Shown here: in pieces, positions 11,170-25,717 of the stretch
How the letters are laid out: the number at the start of each line of letters is the position of its first letter
Numbering within the stretch: the stretch's first letter is position 1
Assembly: GCA_965237955.1 (NCBI GenBank)
Contig: OZ250169.1
Span: 6,368,001 to 6,432,000 of the forward strand
DNA: 64,000 nt
Source: Candidatus Marinacidobacterales bacterium
GTDB taxonomy: Bacteria > Acidobacteriota > Vicinamibacteria > Marinacidobacterales > SMYC01
Direction of reading: 5' to 3'
Translations under genes and position numbers: made by a program
The notes under the pieces: generated by a model
What the model was told of the DNA's origin: nothing
Seen by the model: only the letters and a program-made list of their open reading frames with translations
Database searches by the model: none

Positions 11170-11537
11170 GAGATGCCCGCCCATCACAACCTCGAGGCCT
11201 ATCTGGATGCCTACCTGAACGCCGCGGGCATCCGCGGTGCGAAGAAAACGCCGCTCTTCTGGAGCACTCTTGGAAGGACGAAAAAACTCACCACAAACCC
11301 GATGGCGCGTGTCGACGTCTATCGCATGGTTCGGCGGGGAGCTCGCGATGCCGACATTCAGACGTCCATCGGCTGCCACTCGTTTCGGGCCACCGGCATC
11401 ACGGCGTACTTAAAGAATGGCGCCGCCTCGAGCTTGCCCAGCAGATGGCGGCGTATGTTTCCGCACGCACTACCGGGCTCTACGATCGGCGCGACGAGGA
11501 AATCACCCTCGATGAGGTGGAACGGATTACGATTTGA
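11170..11537 (+). pseudogene. Tyrosine recombinase C-terminal fragment, frameshifted
   Basis: HSFRATGIT (HxxR) then frame change to LELAQQMAAYVSARTTGLYDRR; N-terminus missing at the MITE boundary. Confidence 0.85.
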
Positions 11538-11880
11538 TAAGAACAACTATAATGCATTGTTGTTGCCTCTCCTCTCCGTCCACCAAAGACCTCGCCACGT
11601 TTATACGGATATCCGGCAGGCGCTTGAAGCATATCAGTCTGTGCTCTATCTTTGTTTCGCTCCAAGACGTTGACTCTTGGGCGGATAACGCCCGTGAATT
11701 TCGACTCGTCTACTGAGTATCTAGCGACTCCCACACGGATATCCTATACTCTTCTCGTACACATCTAGTTATTCAGTCTCGAAGAAACTCTCTCAAGAAC
11801 GAATTGTCGAAAGCGCAACGATGCTTGAGATCCCATCCCGAGCTCATTTCGATGGCGCTTTGCCCCACGAGAACTCAGCT

Positions 11881-11990
11881 GTATAACCGAGCACTGGAGC
11901 AGTCGGCCCGGCAGGCCGTCTGCTTCACTGGATAAAAACGGGTATGCTCGGGCTCACGGCGCCGGGCCGCAGCTCAGCGCTACGTTATTT
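11881..11990 (+). other. attC site 1
   Basis: GTATAAC...GGAGCAGTCGGCCCGGC / GCCGGGCCGCAGCTCAG...GTTATTT imperfect palindrome. Confidence 0.8.
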
Positions 11991-12747
11991 GGATGCCTTC
12001 AACAGCAGTGGCAACTGTATCGAAGCAGGAAGCGGCCACGGAAATCACGACCGTTACAGCGCGCCCTCTGTGCCGCGTATTGAACTATGAATAGTCTCAA
12101 AGCGACCTTCCGCCGCGTGTGGATCACTGCCGGCCAGAGTGAACTGTGGAACTGCAACAGTACTTACTGTGCCGTGCCCTACGATTACCTCCCCACGGTA
12201 GACGGCGCCACTGACGATCTTGCGTGGCTCGACCGCGTCAGCCCAGGACTTCGGCAGACCGTGGACGGTACCTGCACGCTAGACAGCGAGGAGAACCAAA
12301 TCGCGCACCTGGACGACATCGTCGCGAAGGCACGTGGTCTTGGATTAAGCCTTCCTGAACCCTTTCAGCGTTTTATGACGATGGTGACTTACAGCAAAAG
12401 GTCCCGACGTCCACCGCTTGCTTTTTGGAGTTGTCGAGGGACTTCATACCGATCCGGGAGGCTGACGGGCATTTCCTCCTGCGTTTCCTCAACGACTCTA
12501 AAGCTGCGTCATGTGGTATCTGTGTATCGGGCCCAAGGAGTCGACTGCCGTCATTGCATCGTATTACTTCTTCGAGCCCGACTATTTCGACGCGATGGAA
12601 TATGAGGACATCGAGCATGAGGATCTCGTGTCGAAAGCATTTTTCTGTGCTGGCACGTTTACGGAGTTCTTATACCGATTCTGGGTTGAGGGAGGTGCCC
12701 CCACCATAGTTGAAGGTTCGAGGTGGTGGCGGCTCCTGACACATGGT

Positions 12748-14037
12748 TTACCCGACTTTGGCGTGCTTGTCGAGCGCTTGATTCTCAGTGACCTCCGCTA
12801 ACTTCGCTTCGAGGATCGGTAGCGATTGGTATCCAATGATACGACGGAAATTTTTCTCCGTGGCGAGCAGAGCCGAAGCGGCCCATCTCAGAACCATCTT
12901 GCCATTGCGCCAGCGGGTGACGCGACGGGTACGACCTCGCGCACCGCTGAAGTACGACTCGATGATGTTCGTCGATCCAAGGCAGCGTTTCAGAGATGCG
13001 GGGAGGTCGAGCTCGTTGATGGTGAACATCTCGTCGAGCCCCTCCCGGATGCTCTCCGCCGCCGAGGGGTAGTCGTCCTCGAGCCACTTCGCCTGTTGCT
13101 CCAACCGCGCTTTGCCCTTCTTTGCTGGGAGCTGCCAGGCCGAACGCAGGCTCGCTTGCACTTGCGGCTTCAGCTCCTGCGGCAGATAACCGAGCACATT
13201 GCGCTCCTTGTGCTTCCTGCAACGCTGGACCTTGTTGTGGGTACCGAACACAGCGTCGACGGCGAGCCGTAGCGCCTTGGAGCCATCGATCACGAACAGC
13301 CGACACCGCTCTGGGCTCAGGCCTCGTTCGACCAGGTCCTCCAGCAGCGCCTTGCACACTATCTGGTTCTCCGATGCTCCATCCCGAAGCCCCAGAACAT
13401 GCTTGTATCCCTCTGTATCTACGCCGATTGCCGCCAGCGCGTGGTGCTCGCCGAAGCGAATCCCGTCCAGGTACACGACCGCGATCTCCAGCTCGTCCAG
13501 CGGACGCTCCATCAGCCCCTGCAACTGCTCCGCGCTTGCTTCCACGAACTCACGGCTCACCTCGCTCTTGCTAACCCCTACCGTCTCCGCCATCTCGGGA
13601 AGAACCGACGCGTACTTGCGCGTCGACACACCCAGCATCAGGATTTCCCAGATGCGTTGGCTCAGCCGAGACGAGTTGTTCACCGCTTCGTAGGCAGGAA
13701 TCGCAACCTCCCCTCCCTCTGCCTTTCCCTTACGCCGCAGACGTGGCCGGCTCACTCTCAACTTCCGCTCCGCAAGGCTTACTACGCCACCCTGCCGGCC
13801 GTGCCAGCGAACATCGCTACCCTTCTTCCCCGGGTGTTTCTCCCCAGCCACACTTTGGGCTGACAGATCCAAGACCGCTTCGATCGTCGCTCGGCCAGCA
13901 ACGTCGATCACTTCGTCGATCGCTATCTCGGTTCGCTCAATCGCATCCAAGAACGGCAACAGAGCTTGCCCCTTCGAGCTCAGTATCTCTCGAAGCTTCT
14001 TCCTGTTCTTCGCATCGATGATTTGGTAATTTGACAT
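12748..14037 (-). CDS. IS256 transposase
   Basis: GVSTRKY, VYLDG, IDGSKAL, QRCRKHK, STNIIES; start MSNYQ as in copy 2. Confidence 0.95.
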   Translation of the reverse strand: MSNYQIIDAKNRKKLREILSSKGQALLPFLDAIERTEIAIDEVIDVAGRATIEAVLDLSAQSVAGEKHPGKKGSDVRWHGRQGGVVSLAERKLRVSRPRLRRKGKAEGGEVAIPAYEAVNNSSRLSQRIWEILMLGVSTRKYASVLPEMAETVGVSKSEVSREFVEASAEQLQGLMERPLDELEIAVVYLDGIRFGEHHALAAIGVDTEGYKHVLGLRDGASENQIVCKALLEDLVERGLSPERCRLFVIDGSKALRLAVDAVFGTHNKVQRCRKHKERNVLGYLPQELKPQVQASLRSAWQLPAKKGKARLEQQAKWLEDDYPSAAESIREGLDEMFTINELDLPASLKRCLGSTNIIESYFSGARGRTRRVTRWRNGKMVLRWAASALLATEKNFRRIIGYQSLPILEAKLAEVTENQALDKHAKVG

Positions 14038-14060
14038 CGTGGTGGCTCCTTTCTTTTTCC

Positions 14061-15779
14061 GGTTCTCCTGTCGTTTCGGGGGATCTGATTTGTGTTGGAG
14101 GGCATGGCCTATGGACGCTGCCGCGATTGTGGAAAACGCCGGAAACTCCGGGCGAGAGAGGCGTTTAGGGAAAGGTTGTGAGCACGTACAAACGTGGAGC
14201 GGCGTTTTCCACAATCGCTTGGAAAACGCTTCGCGTTTCCCACGAGCGCCCACAGGCCCCTCCTGATATATATACAAGAAAGATTAATTCATATGGAATA
14301 AGGAAGGGGGGGCTCGATTAGTGGAGGCTATGGAAAACGCCCTTCCAGGCTTCGAAGAGAACTCAGTCGTGAGCAAGGTCTGAACGACCAGAACCGTGGG
14401 GGCGTTTCCCACAGCCTCGTCTCCCGCTGAGGGGCAGTGGCATTTGGTGAGGCCCGTGGGTTGAGAGGGTAAGCCATGTGTAGATGCGCATCGGCGAGAA
14501 CGCTAGAATCTTTTTTTCCGAAAGAGAAAAGAGCGTTCCCGCGATGCGCGTTACTACGTTAGTCAACAAGCTCATCGGATTGCAAGGCCTGTGGGTCCGA
14601 GGTTTCCACTTCCAGGCGGACAAAGCCAGAGTGGTGGTGGATGTAGTACCACGGAGGAGGAAGCCTCTGTGCGGGATTTGCGGACGAAAGGTCCGCAAGA
14701 ACAAAGATCGCTACAATCGCTACTGGCGGCACTTGGACCTGTTCGGAGTCCGGACCTATCTTCGCTACTCGATCCGACGAGTAGTATGTCGGCGGTGTGG
14801 AGTGGTCAGAGAAAAGGTGCCTTGGGCCGACAAGGGAAGCCGCTTTACCAAAAGCTTCGAACAAGAGGTAGCGTGGCTGGCACAGAGGACGGACGTCAGC
14901 GCCGTAGCGAACTATTTCCGAGTGACGTGGCGTTCGGTGCGACGGATCATCCAGCGAGTGGTTGCCGAGCAGCGGGATGAGCGGCGCGAGCTCGATGGAT
15001 TGCGGGTGATTGGGATGGACGAGATCAGCTACCGCAAACGCCACAAGTACTTAACAGTGGTAATAGACCATCTCAGCGGCCGGGTCGTCTGGGCGGGAAA
15101 GGAGCGCAAGGCCAAGACGCTGCTGCGGTTTTTCCGCAAGCTCGGACCACAAAGAGCCGCGGAGCTCGAAGCGGTCAGCATGGACATGTGGGAGCCGTAC
15201 ATAACTGTCGTCGGCAAAAAGGCTCCTCAGGCACGGGTGATCTTTGACCGCTTCCACATCGTCAAGCATCTGAACGAGGCCGTGGATAAGACCCGGCGCG
15301 AGCTGGTGCGCGAGCTCAAAGGGACTGCCCGGCGCAACCTCAAGAACACCAAGTTTCCCCTTCTCAAGGCCAAACACAACCGCAGCGCGAAAGACAAACG
15401 GGTGCTCCGCGAGCAGGTGCGAGCTAATCGTCGCCTCTACCGCGCCATGCTTCTGCGCGACGACTTCATGGACCTCTACACCTACAAAACCGAGACATGG
15501 GCCAAGAAGTTTCTCCGAGGATGGCTGCGGCGCGCTATGAGCTCGAGGATAGAGCCCGTCAAACGCGCGGCGAAGATGATCCGCAGCCACTTCGATGGCG
15601 TCATCGCGTGGGTCACGTGGAGACTCAGCAACGGCCGACTCGAAGGAATGAACAACAAAATCCGGCTGCTGAGCCACCGCAGCTTTGGACTCCACTCTGC
15701 CGAAGCTCTCATCAGTCTCGTCTACCTAAACTGTGGCGGTCTCACCCTCGAGAGGATCCACTGAAATGGCAGGAGAGGC
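14061..15779 (+). mobile_element. ISL3-family element, copy 2 (1719 bp)
   Basis: Near-identical to 4471-6189, inverted; TSD CTTTTTCC / CTTATTCC; the empty site is visible in IS256 copy 2 near 38807-38814. Confidence 0.95.
14484..15764 (+). CDS. ISL3 transposase
   Basis: Same motifs as copy 1; intact CGICG zinc finger (YGICG in copy 1). Confidence 0.95.
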   Translation: MRIGENARIFFSEREKSVPAMRVTTLVNKLIGLQGLWVRGFHFQADKARVVVDVVPRRRKPLCGICGRKVRKNKDRYNRYWRHLDLFGVRTYLRYSIRRVVCRRCGVVREKVPWADKGSRFTKSFEQEVAWLAQRTDVSAVANYFRVTWRSVRRIIQRVVAEQRDERRELDGLRVIGMDEISYRKRHKYLTVVIDHLSGRVVWAGKERKAKTLLRFFRKLGPQRAAELEAVSMDMWEPYITVVGKKAPQARVIFDRFHIVKHLNEAVDKTRRELVRELKGTARRNLKNTKFPLLKAKHNRSAKDKRVLREQVRANRRLYRAMLLRDDFMDLYTYKTETWAKKFLRGWLRRAMSSRIEPVKRAAKMIRSHFDGVIAWVTWRLSNGRLEGMNNKIRLLSHRSFGLHSAEALISLVYLNCGGLTLERIH

Positions 15780-16070
15780 CTTATTCCTTCACAGCCGGAT
15801 TCTATCGAACCCGGCCTTAGGAGCCGCCACTCCTAACCTTCAACTATCTCAGGGGCATCTCCGGGTTGAGAATACGATCTGGTATTCGCTTCATGACGGA
15901 TTGCAGTTGACACCCATTCAGAAGGAATACCGGAGCCAAATCTCGAGAAAGTTGTACACGCGATGACCAGGTGTTCCCGAGCGTCCGGCGTTCTGGAAAC
16001 GCCATCGCCCCGTCTATGCTCGAGAAGTCGGATGCGCAGAGTCGTCGCCGACCACTGGGCGTCGGGCACC

Positions 16071-16151
16071 AAATAACAGCACGTGCAGCCGTCGGGCGCC
16101 AACATGACTTCTTCGATTGTCGGCGTCCGCAGCTGACGTGTTACGTTATTC
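16071..16151 (+). other. attC site 2
   Basis: AAATAAC...CACGTGCAGCCGTCGGGCGCC / GGCGTCCGCAGCTGACGTG...GTTATTC; CAAATAAC is the exact complement of GTTATTTG of attC1. Confidence 0.82.
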
Positions 16152-16228
16152 GGACTAGCTACTGTGAGATAAAGTGACGCGGGAGAATCGGTGTCGAAGC
16201 CGTTTCGAGCCAGTTTGAAGTCGAGCCT

Positions 16229-16558
16229 ATGGCGAACATCTTCCATGTCATTGGAACATTTCACATCACCGGTCGCACTGTGTTCTTTGTCTACGGGGAC
16301 ATAGTACAGGGTGTAGCACGGGCTGGAATGTTTGCGCGTGTGAGCCGTAGATCCGCTATGCCCATGGAACTGCCAGTTGATGCGGTCGAGTTCGTTGACC
16401 TAGCAAACGGTGAGTTCCACCTGGCACTGGGCTTTAAGTACGAGAACGAGGAGCAACTCGACCGCTGGAAGCGTCTCAACATCGGTGACGAAGACCTAGA
16501 GTTGATCGATGAGAAATCGCGTTTCGGTGAGCCGAGGTCTGAAGGTGTGTCGCCGTAG
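16229..16558 (+). CDS. Cassette-borne hypothetical protein (109 aa)
   Basis: Single ORF filling the space between attC2 and attC3. Confidence 0.7.
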   Translation: MANIFHVIGTFHITGRTVFFVYGDIVQGVARAGMFARVSRRSAMPMELPVDAVEFVDLANGEFHLALGFKYENEEQLDRWKRLNIGDEDLELIDEKSRFGEPRSEGVSP

Positions 16559-16588
16559 CGACCACCGAATGCGCACCATGCGGGAGCC

Positions 16589-16695
16589 GCATAACATCCG
16601 CTTGAGCAGACGGCCGGCACTCAGGATTCGACTGATGAATCAGCTTTACGGTATCTTCGACTAAAGCCGGCCGCAGCTCAGCGGCGACGTTAGCT
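16589..16695 (+). other. attC site 3
   Basis: GCATAAC...CCGCTTGAGCAGACGGCCGGC / GCCGGCCGCAGCTCAGCGG...GTTAGCT. Confidence 0.88.
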
Positions 16696-16714
16696 GGGTC
16701 TTCGGGGTCAGGCG

Positions 16715-17023
16715 GTGGGGATTAAGATGCTAACTCAGGTGTGTTTGGATTATTTGCTCCTTCTTGTGGACGGCGATGATTCGGTGATCGATAGCCGATA
16801 CTGTGAGAAAACGCTGGGTCCCCTTCTTGACGATATGCAGGAAGCAACGGAATCCGAAAAGCAGGCCTTAGCCGCCGCGGCACGTGAAAGGTTGGCATGG
16901 CTACTTCGTGAGCCAGATGAACACGGATATACCCCACGGAAGCTCGTCTCTCAAGAAACACGCGATTTCTTAACCGCCCTCGGTGAGGGAACCGTCTTGC
17001 AGGCGCGCGAAGGGACCAGCTAA
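16715..17023 (+). CDS. Cassette-borne hypothetical protein (~100 aa)
   Basis: Stop TAA lies inside the R'' box AGCTAAC of attC4. Confidence 0.75.
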   Translation: MGIKMLTQVCLDYLLLLVDGDDSVIDSRYCEKTLGPLLDDMQEATESEKQALAAAARERLAWLLREPDEHGYTPRKLVSQETRDFLTALGEGTVLQAREGTS

Positions 17024-17080
17024 CCCTCGCTGGCTGGCTCGACGGCGAGCGCCGCTCGCCGCTGAGCTCTAACGTTCGCC
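17018..17080 (+). other. attC site 4 (short, degenerate)
   Basis: CCAGCTAAC complements GTTAGCTGG of attC3; right arm ACGGCGAGCGCCGCTCGCCGCTGAGCT shared with attC5; ends GTTCGCC. Confidence 0.7.
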
Positions 17081-17092
17081 GGACTAGGGCGT

Positions 17093-17660
17093 ATGAGCAC
17101 CAAGGCAGAGCTAAACTCCATACTCTTTATCGCAATCGTGCTCGCGGTCTCTTGTCAGGATCAATCTAATCAAACCCCCTCAACGTCAACCGCGCGACGC
17201 ACGCCCTCAGGCTTCCTCATCGTCCGCCTGGCCCAACGCCCTCGCAGGAGAGTGGCGCGTGGTTGAGTGGTTTCCAGCGCGCATCGGAACGTGGTCCTCC
17301 GAGGAGGGCGAGCGGGTCGTCGGTCAGGTCGCGCGGTTGTATGCGAATGACCTGGTGGTTCCGGCGTACGGGTGCGAGCGCCCGCACTTTGCCGTCTCCG
17401 ACACCGGCGAGTTCTGGGGGCAGCTCGAGAGGTGCCAAACTGACGAGCCGCCTGCCAGTTGTCGGGACATCTGGTGGGCCCGTGATTCTATGCTCAAGTG
17501 TGCGGGCTCGGAGAACCGCCCATCACCGCTAGCTCAGGTGGCCGTCAGTTGTCCCGACGGAGAGGGGCTCGGGTTCAGCGTTGCGCAGCTCTCGGACGCG
17601 CGGGCCGTTCTCGGTTTGCCGGATGGCCGAGGTTTCCTCTGCCTGGAGTTGATGGAGTAG
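17093..17660 (+). pseudogene. Putative cassette lipoprotein, frameshifted
   Basis: MSTKAELNSILFIAIVLAVSC lipobox-like start directly after attC4; continues in ORF 17259-17660. Confidence 0.5.
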
Positions 17661-17763
17661 CGGCTGGGGCGAGTCGTGACGACCGCGTCGATGCGGGCGT
17701 TACTTGGCTTGATGTTAGCGATGTGCTGCAGTGTGAACCGCCCCGGGTTTTCCGGAGACTGTT

Positions 17764-18681
17764 TTAGTTGAGTCTCGCCATCTCTAGCGAGCCTTCCTGC
17801 GACCGATAGTAGTTCATCTCGTACTCGACGGGGGAGACATTTCCGATCGGCTCCAAGAGTCGTTGCGTGTTGTACCAATGGACCCACTCGAGGGTGGCGA
17901 ACTCAACGTCTTCGAGACCACGCCAGGGCCCACGTCGACGGATCACCTCGGTCTTGTAGAGGCCGATGATGGATTCAGCCAAAGCGTTATCGTAAGAGTC
18001 GCCTCGGCTGCCGACGGACGGCTCAATGCCCGCCTCGGCGAGCCGCTCGGTGTAACGGATCGAGACGTACTGCACGCCGCGATCGCTGTGATGCACCAAT
18101 TGATCTTCTGGGTTTAGTCGGCGCTCGTGCAACGCCTGCTCCAACGCATCGAGAGCGATGCCGGCAGTCAACGATGTCGTCGCTCGCCAACCGACGCTGA
18201 GTCGAGCGAAGACGTCGATGACGAAGGCGACATACACGAAGCCGCGCCACGTGGCGATGTAGGTCAGGTCCGAAACCCAGAGCTCGTTCGGGCGTGTGGC
18301 GTTGAAGTCGCCCTCCACGAGGTCCATCGGGCGAGCGCCGCTCGAATCCGGCTTCGTCGTCTTGAATCGACGTCCACGGACCGCGCCCTGGAGACCCATT
18401 TCACGCATCAGACGGGCCACCGTGCATCGAGCCACGTCGCGGCCCTCACGGCACAGCTGACGCCAGACCTTGCGCACGCCATACACGTCAAAGTTCTCTT
18501 GCCGTACACGACGAATCTCGCCGCGGAGTTGGACGTCGCGCTTCGCTCTCGCTGGCAGGCGGCTTGGGTCCTTCTCTCGCGCTTTCTGCTCGTAATAGGT
18601 CGACGGGGCGATCGGAAGCATCCGGCAGATCGGCGCGTCCCCGTAATTTTCACGGTTCGCGTCCACGAACAACACATTCAC
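17764..18681 (-). CDS. IS3 transposase OrfB
   Basis: WVSDLTY, HHSDRGVQY, DSYDNALAES. Confidence 0.95.
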   Translation of the reverse strand: MNVLFVDANRENYGDAPICRMLPIAPSTYYEQKAREKDPSRLPARAKRDVQLRGEIRRVRQENFDVYGVRKVWRQLCREGRDVARCTVARLMREMGLQGAVRGRRFKTTKPDSSGARPMDLVEGDFNATRPNELWVSDLTYIATWRGFVYVAFVIDVFARLSVGWRATTSLTAGIALDALEQALHERRLNPEDQLVHHSDRGVQYVSIRYTERLAEAGIEPSVGSRGDSYDNALAESIIGLYKTEVIRRRGPWRGLEDVEFATLEWVHWYNTQRLLEPIGNVSPVEYEMNYYRSQEGSLEMARLN

Positions 18682-18998
18682 CTCGGTCGGCGGTCGAGCT
18701 CCGCCTGGGCGAAAAACGCCGACGCCTTGCGAAGGATCTCGTTCGCCCGCTTTAGCTCACGGTTCTCTCGCTCAAGCTCCTTCAGCCGCTGACGCTCGTC
18801 CGTCGTCAGTCCCGCTCGTTTCCCAGCATCACGCTCTGCTCGCCGCACCCACGTGCGTAGCGTTTCCCGCGTACAGTCAATCTTCGACGCAATCGATGAG
18901 ATCGCTGACCACTGAGATTCGTGCTGAGCCTGCTGGTCGAAAACCATCCGCACTGCGCGCTCTTTTACCTCCGGTGAATACCTGCTTCGTCTTGTCAT
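18678..18998 (-). CDS. IS3 transposase OrfA
   Basis: RYSPEVKERAVRMV...EILRKASAFFAQAELDR. Confidence 0.95.
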   Translation of the reverse strand: MTRRSRYSPEVKERAVRMVFDQQAQHESQWSAISSIASKIDCTRETLRTWVRRAERDAGKRAGLTTDERQRLKELERENRELKRANEILRKASAFFAQAELDRRPR

Positions 18999-19257
18999 GA
19001 CTCCATCCTCTCAAGAGTTGGAGTCTCCGGAAAACCCGGGGCGGTTCATGAGAAGTTTCTAGCGGAGTCGACGCGGCCGAACGGTTGGACGATAACCAAT
19101 GTCTTCGTCATCGGTTGGGACGGCACCGGCAATCCTTTTGGCATCCATCGTCAAAGCGGTCGCATCTTAGTGGAGGACCACAACTTTGGAGGTGTCCACG
19201 AACTGGCCCCGTCGCTGGCGGTGTTCTTGCTTCAGGGGCTCAACATGTAAGGGAAAC

Positions 19258-19352
19258 GTCTAACATCAGCTGCAACGGACGAGCGGCGATATGTTGTTTA
19301 GAATGAAAAGACTTACGGCGAGCGCCGCTCGCCGCTGAGCTTTTCGTTATAC
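19258..19352 (+). other. attC site 5
   Basis: GTCTAAC...CTGCAACGGACGAGCGGCG / CGCCGCTCGCCGCTGAG...GTTATAC. Confidence 0.82.
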
Positions 19353-19436: not shown

Positions 19437-19904
19437 TTACTTGCGATGTTTTAGAAGTCGCTCGTCAAAGCCGAAAGCCGTGTCCTTGTCGATGCGGACG
19501 CCGGCGAACTCCGGATGCGCCGGGTTCAGGAGCACGTTGTGGTCGTCGACGACGACCGCGGAGGGAACTCTCAACATGAGGGTTTGCCGGCTTGCGGCCC
19601 AGCGTGTTCCGATCTCGGCAAGTGCCGCCGGAGCAGGGAATGTCTTCCAATCCTCTGGCAAGGACTCGGAATCGATCGTACGCGAAGACGCCGCATCGGG
19701 AACATCGATGAACACCAGGCGGAGGTCGGATGGTTGGAGATTCGCGTCGACGTGAACGAGCAACTCCACGGTGGCCAGGGCAGGGCTGCTCGCGGTGTAC
19801 AAGATCGAGGTCCCTTTCTGATTCCAGCGTGCACCGTACATTCGGGCGCCGGTACCGCTGAGGTCTTGCGCGTACGCGGCCTTTGATATGCGATAGAGGA
19901 TCAA
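19437..19904 (-). CDS. RES-domain toxin (NAD+ phosphorylase type)
   Basis: LSGTGARMYGARWN, YTASSPALATVE, LRVPSAVV, NVLLNPAHP. Confidence 0.93.
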   Translation of the reverse strand: MILYRISKAAYAQDLSGTGARMYGARWNQKGTSILYTASSPALATVELLVHVDANLQPSDLRLVFIDVPDAASSRTIDSESLPEDWKTFPAPAALAEIGTRWAASRQTLMLRVPSAVVVDDHNVLLNPAHPEFAGVRIDKDTAFGFDERLLKHRK

Positions 19905-20332
19905 GACACGAGGCCGTGCTCGACGCGACCCAGCTCGTCAACTACCAGATCGATCCCGAGCTTGGACGCCACGAGGTCCATCGGCTTGCGATTGCCGAGC
20001 GCCACATTCGACCGCTGCATCCAAGCGAGGAACCTATCCTTGTCCTCAAAGACGTCGACGCCACGAACGACGACGCGCGCGATCTCCAGAAGATGATCCG
20101 AGACAGCCCGGCTTAGGCGGGTCGAACGTGAGTACCGCTGGATGGTGCGTTCCGTGATCGGGAGCAAGCGCGCCATCTGGGCCGTTGAGAGCTCCAAAAA
20201 GTTTGCCAGCTCCAGCAAGGACGCTTTGGTAAGCCCCTTCTCGCCGAGGTCGACGAGATCCAGCATCGTCTCGAACTTCCCCCGGAACGTTTTAGGACCT
20301 CCGAGCAGCTCGAGAACGGCGGCTGGATTCAT
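19901..20332 (-). CDS. Xre/MbcA/ParS-type antitoxin
   Basis: HTH ITERTIQR; C-terminal ALGNRKPMDL...ELGRVEHG; overlaps the toxin start by 4 bp. Confidence 0.92.
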   Translation of the reverse strand: MNPAAVLELLGGPKTFRGKFETMLDLVDLGEKGLTKASLLELANFLELSTAQMARLLPITERTIQRYSRSTRLSRAVSDHLLEIARVVVRGVDVFEDKDRFLAWMQRSNVALGNRKPMDLVASKLGIDLVVDELGRVEHGLVS

Positions 20333-20342
20333 GTAGATAGCT

Positions 20343-20386
20343 CCGTCATTTGACGTAATTATACCGTCACTTGTCGCAAAGATCAA
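20343..20386 (-). promoter_or_regulatory. Putative sigma70 promoter and operator of xre-res
   Basis: TTGATC-17 bp-TATAAT on minus; repeats GACAAGTGACGG and GTCAAATGACGG flank the -10 box. Confidence 0.65.
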
Positions 20387-20586
20387 ACTGAGGGGCTTTG
20401 GCCCGTTCCGGGCCCTCTGAAAGCGCCGCTTTTCGAGCTCTCCTCAGAATCGCATGGAAACATGTCCATCGTCAAAACTCGTCCGTCCTTGAAATCAGGC
20501 ACTTACACCGACCCAAGCCTGGGCTAGGAGCTGGTTCTCTGAGATTCCGCCGTGGGAAGGGCAAAACCGTGCTGCTCACACAGGCA

Positions 20587-21934: not shown

Positions 21935-22150
21935 ACCCAAGAATGACAGGGAGCTATTCCCATGGCCAGCCGGCCGATAATGGCTGTCTGCAAAGGATCT
22001 TGTCGAACGTTCGCTCTCCATCCTCCACAATGATCGTGCGAGGAGCACGGCTTTGTCGGGCACCGAAGCGTTATCGCCGAGGTAATCGGCATTGTCACGA
22101 CGAGCGACAGCGGGGCAGATCAGTGTAGCGGCAGCGGATCAGCCGGAGCC

Positions 22151-22180
22151 TCCTAACAACCGCATGCAACGGACGGTCGC
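22151..22180 (+). other. attC left half-site
   Basis: TCCTAACAACCGCATGCAACGGACG resembles the left arm of attC5; no right arm found. Confidence 0.5.
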
Positions 22181-22271
22181 CGAGTCATGCTATTTTCCTG
22201 TGTTGGCGGGTAGGTGTGCTACCCTCCCACTCTCGAGCTACATCCACACGATGCGCGAAGGGAGGACCGCC

Positions 22272-24335
22272 ATGTTGAAGCGTTCGCTGATTGTAGCCTC
22301 TCTCGCCCTCTGCCTCGTGAGCCAAGCTACCGCCCAAACGAGCGGCAACCGGTTGACGCTTGAAGGGTACCTCGATTACGAGACCGTCGACGACCCCAGA
22401 CTGTCTCCCGACGGAAGCCGCGTCGTCTACACGCGCCAGTGGTTCGACAAGCTGGCCGATCGGCAGCAATCGTCCGTCTGGATCGTGAACGCCGACGGCA
22501 CCCGCAATCGCTTTCTGATCGATGGCTCGAATGCTCGTTGGTCTCCCTCGGGCGACCGGTTGGCATTCGTCGCGCCTGGCGAGCCCAAGGGGCCACAAGT
22601 ATTCGTACGCTGGATGGATGCAGAAGGGTCCGTCACTCAAATCACCCGCGTCGACCAATCCCCTTCCAACGTCGCATGGTCTCCGGACGGCACCAAGATA
22701 GCTTTCACCATGTTGGTAGAAAAGAAGAACGAGTGGCCCATCGATCTGCCGAAGCCGCCCCAAGGAGCCAAGTGGACCGAGTCCCCCAAGATCATCGAGC
22801 GGCTCGAATACCGCCGGGATGGTATCGGCTATATCGATACAGGGTACCTTCACATCTTTGTCGTTGCCGCGGAAGGCGGCACACCGCGGCAGATCACTTC
22901 GGGCGACTACGACCACCCCGGGAGAGACCCTACTGCGAACAACAATCTGGCCTGGACGCCGGATAGCAAACAGATCCTCTTCAGCGGGCTCCGTGCCCAA
23001 GATGCCGACTATCAATGGCGGGAGTCCGAGATCTACGCGGTCGATGTCGCCACGAGCGAGGTGCATCGCCTCACCGATCGCAAAGGCCAAGATCAGACAC
23101 CGAGAGTCTCGCCCGATGGAACGAAAGTCGCCTACAGGGGTTACGACTGGCACCGCGACTTTTATATGCACAAGATCTACGTCATGGACATCGACGGCCG
23201 GAATCCTCGACTGGTCTCCGGCGATTGGGACCGTCGCTCGAAAGCCCTTTTCTGGGGAAGCGACAGCGACAGGCTCTACTTTACGGCCGAGAACGAAGGC
23301 AGCCGCAACCTTTACGCCCTTCCTCTGACCGGACCTAAGGCCAACAAAGTGGTGCCGGTGACGGAAGGTAACCATTGGGTCACGGTGTCCGAGATCAGTC
23401 CCAAAGGCCAGGCCGTTGCGGTTCGGACCGATTTCCATCGGCCGCAGGACGTCGTTCTCTTCGACGTTGCCCGAGCCGGAGCGATGAAGCAGCTGACGCA
23501 CGTCAACGACGATATCCTCGAAGGCATCGATCTCGGGGAAGTGGAGGAGATCTGGTACGAAGCGCCGGACGGTGTTCGCGTCCAAGGCTGGTATATGACA
23601 CCGCCGGATTTCGATGCGACGAAGACCTATTCCATGCAGCTTCACATCCACGGTGGCCCTCACGCCATGTACGGAGCACAGTTCAAATACAGCTGGCACG
23701 AGCACGCGGCCAACGATTACGTCATCCTGTTTACCAACCCCCGAGGCAGCAGCGGTTATGGCAGCAAGTTTGGAAACTTGATCGCCGACGCCTACCCCGG
23801 CCCGGACTATCAGGATTTGATGGCCGGCGTCGACACGATGCTGGAAAAGGGCTTCGTCGACGAGCAGAATCTCTTCGTCACCGGCTGCAGCGGAGGGGGC
23901 ATCCTCACGGCATGGGTCGTTACCCAGACGGATCGATTCGCTGCAGCCTCTTCCAACTGCACCATCGTGGATTGGGTGAGCCTGCTGGGCACCACGGACA
24001 TCACCTGGGCCTTCTATCACTTATTCCTCAAGCTTCCCTGGGAAGACCCGACATTGTGGTTGAAGCACTCCCCCATCAATCACGTGGAGAACGTGAAGAC
24101 ACCGACGATGCTCATCACCGGAGAGGAAGACCTGAGAACGCCGGTCACCCAAGCTGAGCAGTTCTATCGGGCCTTGAAGTTCTTGAAAGTCCCGACAGCG
24201 CTTCTGCGCTACAAAGACCAGGCTCACGGAACCGGGAGCCGTCCTTCCAACTTCATGAGGACTCAGCTCTATTTGCGCTACTGGTTCGACAAATACAAAC
24301 GCCCATCGGGGCGGGCAACGGACCATCAGGAGTAG
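22272..24335 (+). CDS. Secreted S9-family peptidase with PD40 beta-propeller
   Basis: GGAGGA RBS, signal peptide, HGGP, NPRGSSGYG, GCSGGG nucleophile, EEDLRT, DQAHG. Confidence 0.95.
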   Translation: MLKRSLIVASLALCLVSQATAQTSGNRLTLEGYLDYETVDDPRLSPDGSRVVYTRQWFDKLADRQQSSVWIVNADGTRNRFLIDGSNARWSPSGDRLAFVAPGEPKGPQVFVRWMDAEGSVTQITRVDQSPSNVAWSPDGTKIAFTMLVEKKNEWPIDLPKPPQGAKWTESPKIIERLEYRRDGIGYIDTGYLHIFVVAAEGGTPRQITSGDYDHPGRDPTANNNLAWTPDSKQILFSGLRAQDADYQWRESEIYAVDVATSEVHRLTDRKGQDQTPRVSPDGTKVAYRGYDWHRDFYMHKIYVMDIDGRNPRLVSGDWDRRSKALFWGSDSDRLYFTAENEGSRNLYALPLTGPKANKVVPVTEGNHWVTVSEISPKGQAVAVRTDFHRPQDVVLFDVARAGAMKQLTHVNDDILEGIDLGEVEEIWYEAPDGVRVQGWYMTPPDFDATKTYSMQLHIHGGPHAMYGAQFKYSWHEHAANDYVILFTNPRGSSGYGSKFGNLIADAYPGPDYQDLMAGVDTMLEKGFVDEQNLFVTGCSGGGILTAWVVTQTDRFAAASSNCTIVDWVSLLGTTDITWAFYHLFLKLPWEDPTLWLKHSPINHVENVKTPTMLITGEEDLRTPVTQAEQFYRALKFLKVPTALLRYKDQAHGTGSRPSNFMRTQLYLRYWFDKYKRPSGRATDHQE

Positions 24336-24798: not shown

Positions 24799-24868
24799 AT
24801 CGTTCCTGCGATGTCTGATGCGTCTTCCACAGAGAGCTCGAAGACACCCATTGCTCTACTCCCTGTCT

Positions 24869-24990
24869 GCAGAACACCGGGATGAGCGGCGGCACGGCGA
24901 AGGTGTCGACCGAGACCGCCAACGTTATCTACCCAGTGTCTCATGTCTGCCCGAAGGCTCGGTGCCGTCCGCTCAATCGCGTTGTTATGT
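24869..24990 (-). other. attC site (minus strand)
   Basis: Minus: ACATAAC...TTGAGCGGACGGCAC / GTGCCGCCGCTCA...GTTCTGC. Confidence 0.8.
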
Positions 24991-25659
24991 GTCCATTCCG
25001 TCGTCCCGGAGGAATCGATGCCCTTGCACCCGCTCAGAATGTAAAGACTAAATAGTGACAGGAAAGATAGTCAGGATACTCAATCCTTTGGCTCTCCGCT
25101 GCTTCGAGGACCCCGAGTCGTCCATCCGAACGCGAGAAAAGGCGCACATTGTTGTTGTTTGGGTATCCCGAACTCCTTGCCTGTAAAGAGCGCGAACTCA
25201 TAAGTGGTCCTATCGTCCCACTCGCGGAGTAGATTTCCCAGACTTCGACTAAAGACTCGCGCCTCCCCATCTGCTATCTGTCCACGCAACCACCTTTGAT
25301 AAGTCGCGTCAGCTTGTTCCCGAAGGCGCTTGAACGCGAGGTAATCTGACTCATCTTCACGACTCGCCCAATAAACATCCTCCGCTACCCGATTTGCAAA
25401 AACTCATCGTGATGCCTAGCCACAACATGATCAAACGAAGGGCGACCGCAAGTACGGCGATATGGTTTCTGAGCAGCGCTGGACCGACACGGCACATATC
25501 GCGTGCATCACAAGAGAGAAACGCAGACCAGAGCCGTACCGTCCCGATGACAGGCTCACCCCGCAGTTTGTCGCGGCGAGATTGCGGTAGTCCCGTCAAC
25601 TCAATCCTGAATTGCCAACCACGGCTTTCGGGGCAGTTCCTGCCGCTTCAACAAAGTAC

Positions 25660-25690
25660 ACATAACGTACCGATGAGCTGCCGCCGGGCT
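25660..25690 (-). other. attC right half-site (minus strand), left arm lost at IS5 boundary
   Basis: Minus: GCCCGGCGGCAGCTCATCGGTACGTTATGTG; GTTATGTG complements CACATAAC of the attC ending at 24990. Confidence 0.7.
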
Positions 25691-25717
25691 TCTACCTAGG
25701 AAATTCCAGGAAGTCGG

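Follow-up and report, generated by a model that had tools for sequence, protein, structure and literature searches.

How does an array of integron cassettes come to stand without an integrase gene, and can it still be used? CALINs, which are clusters of attC sites that lack integron-integrases, are defined by at least two attC sites and no neighbouring intI. Four origins have been proposed for them, loss of intI being one (PMC4889954; reviewed in PMC8618304; published work is cited throughout from the parts of each paper that were available). Most CALINs carry no trace of intI, 95% being without a recognisable intI pseudogene nearby, and their origin and continued use are unsettled (PMC4889954). 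The question is raised here by a stretch of 64,000 nucleotides (the window, C1:6368001-6432000) in the genome of a Candidatus Marinacidobacterales bacterium, a single contig (C1) of 8.13 Mb and 60% GC belonging to the Acidobacteriota, a phylum from which attC sites have already been published (PMC8352920). The region is an array of cassettes with a likely attI site at its head, and it was probably left by an inverted-integrase integron that lost its intI and kept an attI-like module together with the cassettes.

The array and the module at its head

The original prediction had read five attC sites in this region, and all five (a1 to a5, Table 1) lie where it had placed them. Under a covariance model trained on 12 attC-like sites, all outside the window, gathered by two scanners and then aligned, a1, a2, a3 and a5 score 65.6 to 71.3 bits (E-values of about 1e-14 to 4e-16), and they fold, as measured by z-scores of the bottom strand against shuffles. 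These two checks, which the prediction had itself proposed, support four of the five as good attC sites, with the R''-L''...L'-R' palindrome, an AAC/GTT core and extrahelical bases; a4 is degenerate, because its score, its fold z and its R-box pairing probability are all low (16.6 bits, -1.1 and 0.22). The model contains 20 base pairs, 92% of them kept and with compensatory changes, which 0 of 500 shuffles equalled. One of its 12 training sites lies within a 220-bp stretch 90% identical to cassette 0 plus a1, so the score of a1 is not independent. An Rfam scan matched RF01497 and no other family.

Consecutive attC sites are 4081, 438, 323 and 2178 bp apart. With a clustering distance of 4 kb (PMC4889954) only the first site would fall off, and to call the array hidden from annotation was an overstatement. 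The core complementarity quoted for three junctions was reproduced (7/7, 6/7 and 7/7), as was an open reading frame (ORF) that stops inside R'' (16715-17023). Cassette start and own R'' are complementary at four of five junctions when cassette 0, whose start fits the R'' complement in 8/9 positions, is counted; across the a4-a5 interval the cassette ends are not complementary (GTTCGCC versus GTTAGAC). This failed fourth junction had been overlooked, together with cassette 0, which begins at 11769, and the attI-like module that precedes it.

The module, of about 190 bp, leaves the earlier statement that no attI is visible unsupported. It is homologous to the spacer between intI and attI of a complete inverted-integrase integron, L101, in the relative G009: 127 of 207 alignment columns are identical (z 16.5; score 73 versus 22 +/- 3 for shuffles), and the two are collinear up to GTT. 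The other 18 spacers tested against it reached z of at most 3.4. Among about 5000 random pieces of the genome, which contains other copies of the module, the best scored 60. A profile built from 13 copies in relatives, with the window left out, recovers the window module at E 1.9e-17 and finds four more copies in the same genome (with E<=0.03 or as a shorter version); a rebuilt profile finds six copies there, and nothing in the reversed genome. The module ends at G|TT, where cassette 0 begins. An L-like heptamer and an AT-rich spacer of 5-6 nt can be seen by eye in the module alignment (A4), and the best conserved stretch includes the hexamer TATACT. By its homology and its G|TT end, the window module is likely an attI site. 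GTTATAC after a5 had been considered for the right half of the empty attI, a suggestion dropped once a site in the relative G013 (G013b) proved not to be empty: it had been wrongly taken for an empty site and holds one amidohydrolase cassette.

The module family and the integrases

The module belongs to a family of 26 copies in eight Acidobacteriota genomes: six in the genome of the window, eight in G009, five in G013, two each in G002 and G014, and one each in G001, G008 and G025. Copies were sought by a DNA search in 55 genomes, by an 18-mer in 401 genomes of the class and by a sequence-only model in 55; seven 18-mer matches outside the order, without the rest of the module, and one order-level match (G006) were dropped before counting. 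The exact 30-base module pattern had no match in metagenome contigs. Same-strand attC sites were looked for within about 8 kb and lie downstream of 16 of the 26 copies. For 12 of the 16, the 9-mer at the crossover agrees with the R'' complement of the first attC in 8/9 or 9/9 positions, a level that 0.1-1.3% of random GTT sites attain; the other four comprise two with 7/9, one with 5/9, which rises to 8/9 against a degenerate site picked out by eye, and one that is interrupted. Three of the five new matches of the final model outside the genome of the window pass the same test. Within that genome, three of the six modules, the window copy included, head arrays, versus 0.7% for a random position.

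Traces of an integrase gene are found beside some copies. One of the 26 stands beside an intact intI, and three (G013e, G009f and G009g) follow a clear 3' tail of intI, the tails differing in length and one having 95% DNA identity to the end of the L101 intI; the tail before another copy is doubtful. A tail seen by eye before G009b was not supported on checking. No intI remnant precedes any of the six copies in the window genome, and decapitation of the window copy is therefore inferred from the relatives. Other copies were observed in unusual settings. In G009 (C2:4.54-4.57 Mb; L157 and L166), three tandem modules lie within 22 kb, two of them with intI tails. In the window genome, C1:8035787 and C1:356734 are identical modules without the GTT end, within a duplicated segment, and at C1:4038314-4038813 (L159) the G|TT of a module abuts a repeat-containing gene of which a truncated 3' end is left, the arrangement to be expected after an event between attI and a secondary site; no reciprocal product turned up. 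An inversion partner for the L159 module (C1:4038374) was sought near an attC at 4.14 Mb, and none was found.

One orthologous locus bears on whether such sites are used. In G009 and G013 it consists of a symporter gene, a module and an amidohydrolase cassette, with flanks 98% identical and no intI tail in either genome. G009 has 1,246 bp extra, which are two cassettes with matching ends placed exactly at the crossover; over 748 bp the second shares 95% identity with the cassette that comes first at another module of G013. Intact intI genes lie elsewhere, two in G009 and none in G013. The gain or loss of cassettes most simply occurred at a site that had no intI of its own, which, judged from these sequences, points to action in trans.

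The integrase of the window genome is of another type. The earlier statement that no intI is visible beside the array stands, and the genome search that it called for returned a single gene: the only TIGR02249 match over the cut-off is at C1:3346207-3347146, 3.03 Mb away, and no IntI C-terminus was found elsewhere in the genome. A frameshift after about codon 113 divides the gene, and is unlikely to be an error of assembly, because recent copies of insertion sequences (ISs) show 19 private gap events in 199 kb. Its closest IntI homologues come from Acidobacteriota metagenome-assembled genomes (82% and 73% identity). Its protein is 60% identical to the L101 IntI, the integrase found beside this module type, and its intI-attI spacer is unrelated to the window module (z 0.3). 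The suggestion that the array is served in trans is supported for the family, by the difference between G009 and G013, and is doubtful for this genome today, with its intI frameshifted, only 60% identical and linked to a different attI spacer. The cassettes of this intI lie downstream of it and are co-directional, as in all six order-level intI loci with an attC match among the 17 searched; the second cassette is cut by an IS. The first (C1:3347398-3348244, or L011 3398-4244) contains two genes, for a DUF4160 and a helix-turn-helix protein, both weak matches, a unit which we take to be toxin-antitoxin-like.

In the window, the place of intI is occupied by a broken tyrosine recombinase remnant (Table 1). 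A degraded intI was considered and rejected, since it scores 17.9 bits against TIGR02249 (cut-off 265) and its first 84 residues align to an IntI by BLASTP at E 3.1 with 22% identity. Breaks in intI were observed elsewhere: the intI genes L106 (G002) and L116 (G001) both end near the codon of the catalytic tyrosine and run on into similar sequence, which suggests an element targeting intI. Near-identical tyrosine recombinase genes lie within or beside cassette arrays at G009:C2:3522347 and 4542705, G018:C1:1525875 and G027:C697:509.

Cargo, insertion sequences and neighbouring arrays

Table 1. Features of the array and its flanks (positions in the window).
Feature	Position	Strand	Evidence
Broken C-terminal tyrosine recombinase remnant, non-IntI, where intI would be	11173..11537	+	PF00589 E 0.0024
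attI-like module, ~190 bp (likely attI)	11584..11771	+	upstream box 11591; conserved motif 11741-11758; crossover G11768|T11769
Cassette 0, ORF-less (longest frame 21 codons), carries a1	11769..11984	+	R'' complement match; 113 bp outside attC
attC a1	11881-11990	+	65.9 bits; fold z -3.6; R-box pairing probability 0.82
Cassette 1, ~230-aa SMI1/KNR4-like gene (12087-15966)	11985..16145	+	broken by two frameshifts and IS256
IS256-family element	12691..15862	-	PF00872; perfect 8-bp target duplication 12683-12690 / 15863-15870; 34 copies in genome
ISL3 element	14061..15779	+	PF01610; nested in 5' end of IS256; 58 copies in genome
attC a2	16071-16151	+	66.7 bits; fold z -4.9; R-box pairing probability 0.96
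Cassette 2, 109-aa ORF 16229-16558, with a3	16146..16689	+	ORF list; Pfam and NCBIfam scans
attC a3	16589-16695	+	65.6 bits; fold z -4.7; R-box pairing probability 0.94
Cassette 3, ~100-aa ORF 16715-17023, with a4	16690..17074	+	ORF stop inside R''
attC a4 (degenerate)	17018-17080	+	16.6 bits, E 0.09; fold z -1.1; R-box pairing probability 0.22
5' cassette piece, lipoprotein-like signal at 17093, frameshifted into ORF 17259-17660	17075..17733	+	translation; lipobox by eye; weak NCBIfam match E 0.16
IS3-family element	17734..19048	-	Pfam; ALIL pseudoknot RF01497; about 30 genome copies
3' piece of second SMI1/KNR4-like cassette, with a5	19049..19346	+	PF09346 E 0.006, below cut-off
attC a5	19258-19352	+	71.3 bits; fold z -3.3; R-box pairing probability 0.74
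RES/Xre toxin-antitoxin pair directly after a5	19437..20386	-	NF049844 and NF049845 over cut-off
Left arm of sixth attC	22150..22206	+	by eye, no model score; cut by duplicated peptidase segment

Cassette 0 has a twin at C1:5241173-5241395, with 98/113 positions identical outside attC and 90% identity over 220 bp; beyond its own genome it gave just a 28-bp match, in one of 54 relatives. Cassette 1 is a single gene broken three times, since an intact 230-aa homologue (P0001) aligns to it in four pieces spanning the IS. Its protein family has 680 members at E<=0.001. The SMI1/KNR4-like character given to it by the prediction probably holds: the structure model (predicted local distance difference test, pLDDT, 94) has modest structural matches (Z 4.4-6.3, all below 8) that include the SMI1/KNR4 protein BF1740 and Knr4, ranks 4 (Z 5.5, root-mean-square deviation 4.0, 114 residues aligned) and 7 (Z 4.6) being titled SMI1/KNR4 and Knr4. 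Ranks 1-3, 6 and 8 are presumably SUKH folds. None of three close homologues exceeds a Pfam cut-off, and 2 of 25 family members match PF09346 below it (best E 1e-4). Foldseek gave no match for either modelled cassette protein, nor did a PDB sequence search with the cargo or an Atlas search with a piece of cassette 1. A homologue search with the protein of cassette 2 returned itself alone, and that with cassette 3 one homologue (77%).

The three IS elements reported earlier, IS256, ISL3 and IS3, are all present according to Pfam; ISL3 is nested in IS256 and is not a separate insertion into the array. The IS3 has no 3-bp target duplication, and 12 of the 31 IS3 copies listed have one (3 or 4 bp). 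The last 'cassette' is chimeric, parts of two cassettes meeting across this IS3, a lipoprotein-like 5' piece and an SMI1/KNR4-like 3' piece; no reciprocal partner was found among the 31 copies listed. The RES/Xre pair is possibly a further cassette that lost its attC, the covariance model finding no attC that matches it.

Further remains of arrays were observed around it. The half attC ending at 22206 is cut by a peptidase-like gene segment (22207-24334), of which a 98.9% identical duplicate lies at C1:3826884-3829007. Positions 20457-20566 are 93% identical to C1:5238703-5238817, which adjoins an attC right arm of the array at 5.24 Mb. On the minus strand, 24866-25693 is a second, eroded array facing the first; it has an attC right arm (25662-25693) whose left arm was lost beside an IS, a cassette of 680 bp whose start and R'' match in 9/9 positions, and a weak attC (24869-24990, 24.7 bits). 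The genome as a whole has 21 attC sites at E<=0.001, spread over about a dozen places, a count that rests on 127-150 candidates scored. The usual spacer between R'' and L'' is 5 nt long. In 22 attC sites of this genome, 4 nt fits 13 and 5 nt fits 7; a2 and a3 have 4 nt. The shorter spacer may bear on which IntI recognises them.

Origin of the array and known systems

In the history that is favoured here, an inverted integron would have gathered cassettes, integrated as circles, at G11768|T11769; intI would afterwards have been deleted, the module and the array remaining. An IntI encoded elsewhere could insert or excise cassettes at such modules, and the module would also be expected to hold the cassette promoter, though none was detected. 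IS elements would then have eroded the array in this genome. Since the one intI of the genome is frameshifted and of another type, the array is by now probably frozen and in decay. Excision between two attC sites is feasible for any IntI. Insertion at the module probably needs a matching IntI, since non-cognate pairs of attI and IntI are generally inefficient (PMC8946536). For the family, it is possible, and put forward here tentatively, that one integrase serves a network of attI platforms, as many as eight in a genome and dispersed over it, and that many 'CALINs' are live satellite integrons capturing and swapping cassettes in trans, the window array being such a one that has stalled only because its matching IntI was lost.

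Several observations weigh against the loss of intI from a working attI. No intI trace accompanies 21 of the 26 modules, nor any of the six in this genome, and a non-IntI recombinase remnant, for which no explanation is offered, occupies the place of intI. Ten modules have no model-scored attC downstream (three of the ten were inspected over 1.5 kb only), and five are without an intact GTT end. A scan of 11500-12100 for sigma-70-type promoters, the type that it covered, returned none. The difference between G009 and G013 has no polarity and is a single event, in relatives, which does not amount to activity in the window genome. The genomes are related, so that the module counts are not independent, and the motif was derived from a part of the copies counted. 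Two module islands have no counterpart at the orthologous site in the sister genome, and their junctions are replacements and not att junctions, so that the spread of the modules is not accounted for. Movement of module and array as a circle, by recombination of attC with attG, was rejected: the left island junctions are not of GWT type, and the flanking host DNA is replaced.

These gaps invite other explanations, of which one is that the module is a free-standing satellite, an attI or promoter platform spreading without intI and not the leftover of repeated intI loss. The many copies without an intI trace would suit it, as would several copies whose starts lie near one and the same upstream box (one directly behind a host stop codon), the different loci occupied in sister genomes and the number of copies, up to eight per genome. 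The 5' ends vary, however, the island junctions are not att-like, and the intI tails of differing length in three copies show that decay happens; we regard the satellite explanation as unlikely. The TATACT hexamer and the G025 copy, which has no GTT end and precedes an ordinary gene, would agree with a module retained for expression, chiefly as a promoter or a regulator-binding region, and dead for recombination. The cassette difference at the crossover in G009 and G013 speaks against this, as does the failure to find a consensus promoter, and as a general account it is extremely improbable; for this genome today it is compatible with loss of intI and not exclusive of it.

The remaining two explanations dispense with an attI at this locus. 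Across genomes, GWT sites receive cassettes through the action of IntI (bioRxiv 2022.09.11.507474), and a genome with an intI and 21 scattered attC sites could have acquired a plain CALIN at a random secondary (attG) site in this way. Such sites have just three bases in common, whereas the insertion point here ends a module of 190 bp that is homologous to the spacer of a complete integron and repeated before other arrays. Random insertion is already disfavoured and very unlikely for the window array, and may explain arrays without a detected head. An IS-mediated rearrangement could also have moved a distal piece of the genome's own array from C1:3.346 Mb: the genome is rich in ISs (34, 58 and about 30 copies of three elements), the IS3 of the window array has no target duplication, and an IS interrupts the second cassette of the array linked to intI. 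Against this, the head of the window array is its own and bears no relation to the spacer of that intI, and no IS3 with reciprocal flanks is among the 31 copies listed. Displacement is highly improbable for the array, and could still apply to the part right of IS3.

The array alone is ordinary; the retained attI family is what makes the origin and the activity of a CALIN testable. Even where no intI remnant is left, a retained lineage-specific attI distinguishes an integron that was decapitated from an off-target insertion or a split array, and a module combined with its cognate IntI and an attC offers a direct test of activity in trans. If such sites are live, an integron could function as a distributed system, and what counts as a relic array in environmental genomes would be a capture point. 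No report of attI-retaining CALINs, or of an attI shared by several loci of a genome, was found in a partial literature search without supplements, which is weak evidence of novelty; putative attI sites have been reported beside archaeal intI.

Several known systems resemble parts of the locus. Inverted-integrase integrons have been described for Treponema (PMC4889954; PMC8352920). The intI of this genome and the six order-level loci share their co-directional downstream cassettes, and the module derives from such a spacer; the window differs in having no intI, and its lineage in having several attI-like modules per genome. Cassette 0 is like the ORF-less cassettes described previously (PMC8876359) in its first position, its attC and its lack of a convincing ORF, and unlike them in that no promoter-like site was found in it and that it has one twin in the genome. 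With single attC sites lacking an integrase (SALINs) and attG insertion (bioRxiv 2022.09.11.507474) it shares cassettes far from intI at many loci per genome, but attG is a three-base GWT consensus unlike attI and the site in the window is a long conserved module. In Xanthomonas, intI was lost by frameshift or deletion while the arrays stayed, and CALINs not linked to it are described as mobilisable in trans (bioRxiv 2025.06.18.660453). Inactivated intI, retained arrays and additional CALINs at other loci are common to both cases; there, intI is fixed at ilvD and the CALINs lie at conserved loci, with no attI mentioned at them in the available text, whereas here the heads lie at variable loci and carry the module. 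By definition the array is a CALIN and, having no adjacent intI, not a complete integron: it is small and IS-rich, and an IntI is encoded elsewhere in the replicon. Only attC enters the definition of CALINs, whereas this one, though without a trace of intI, keeps a lineage-specific attI-like module that marks its origin.

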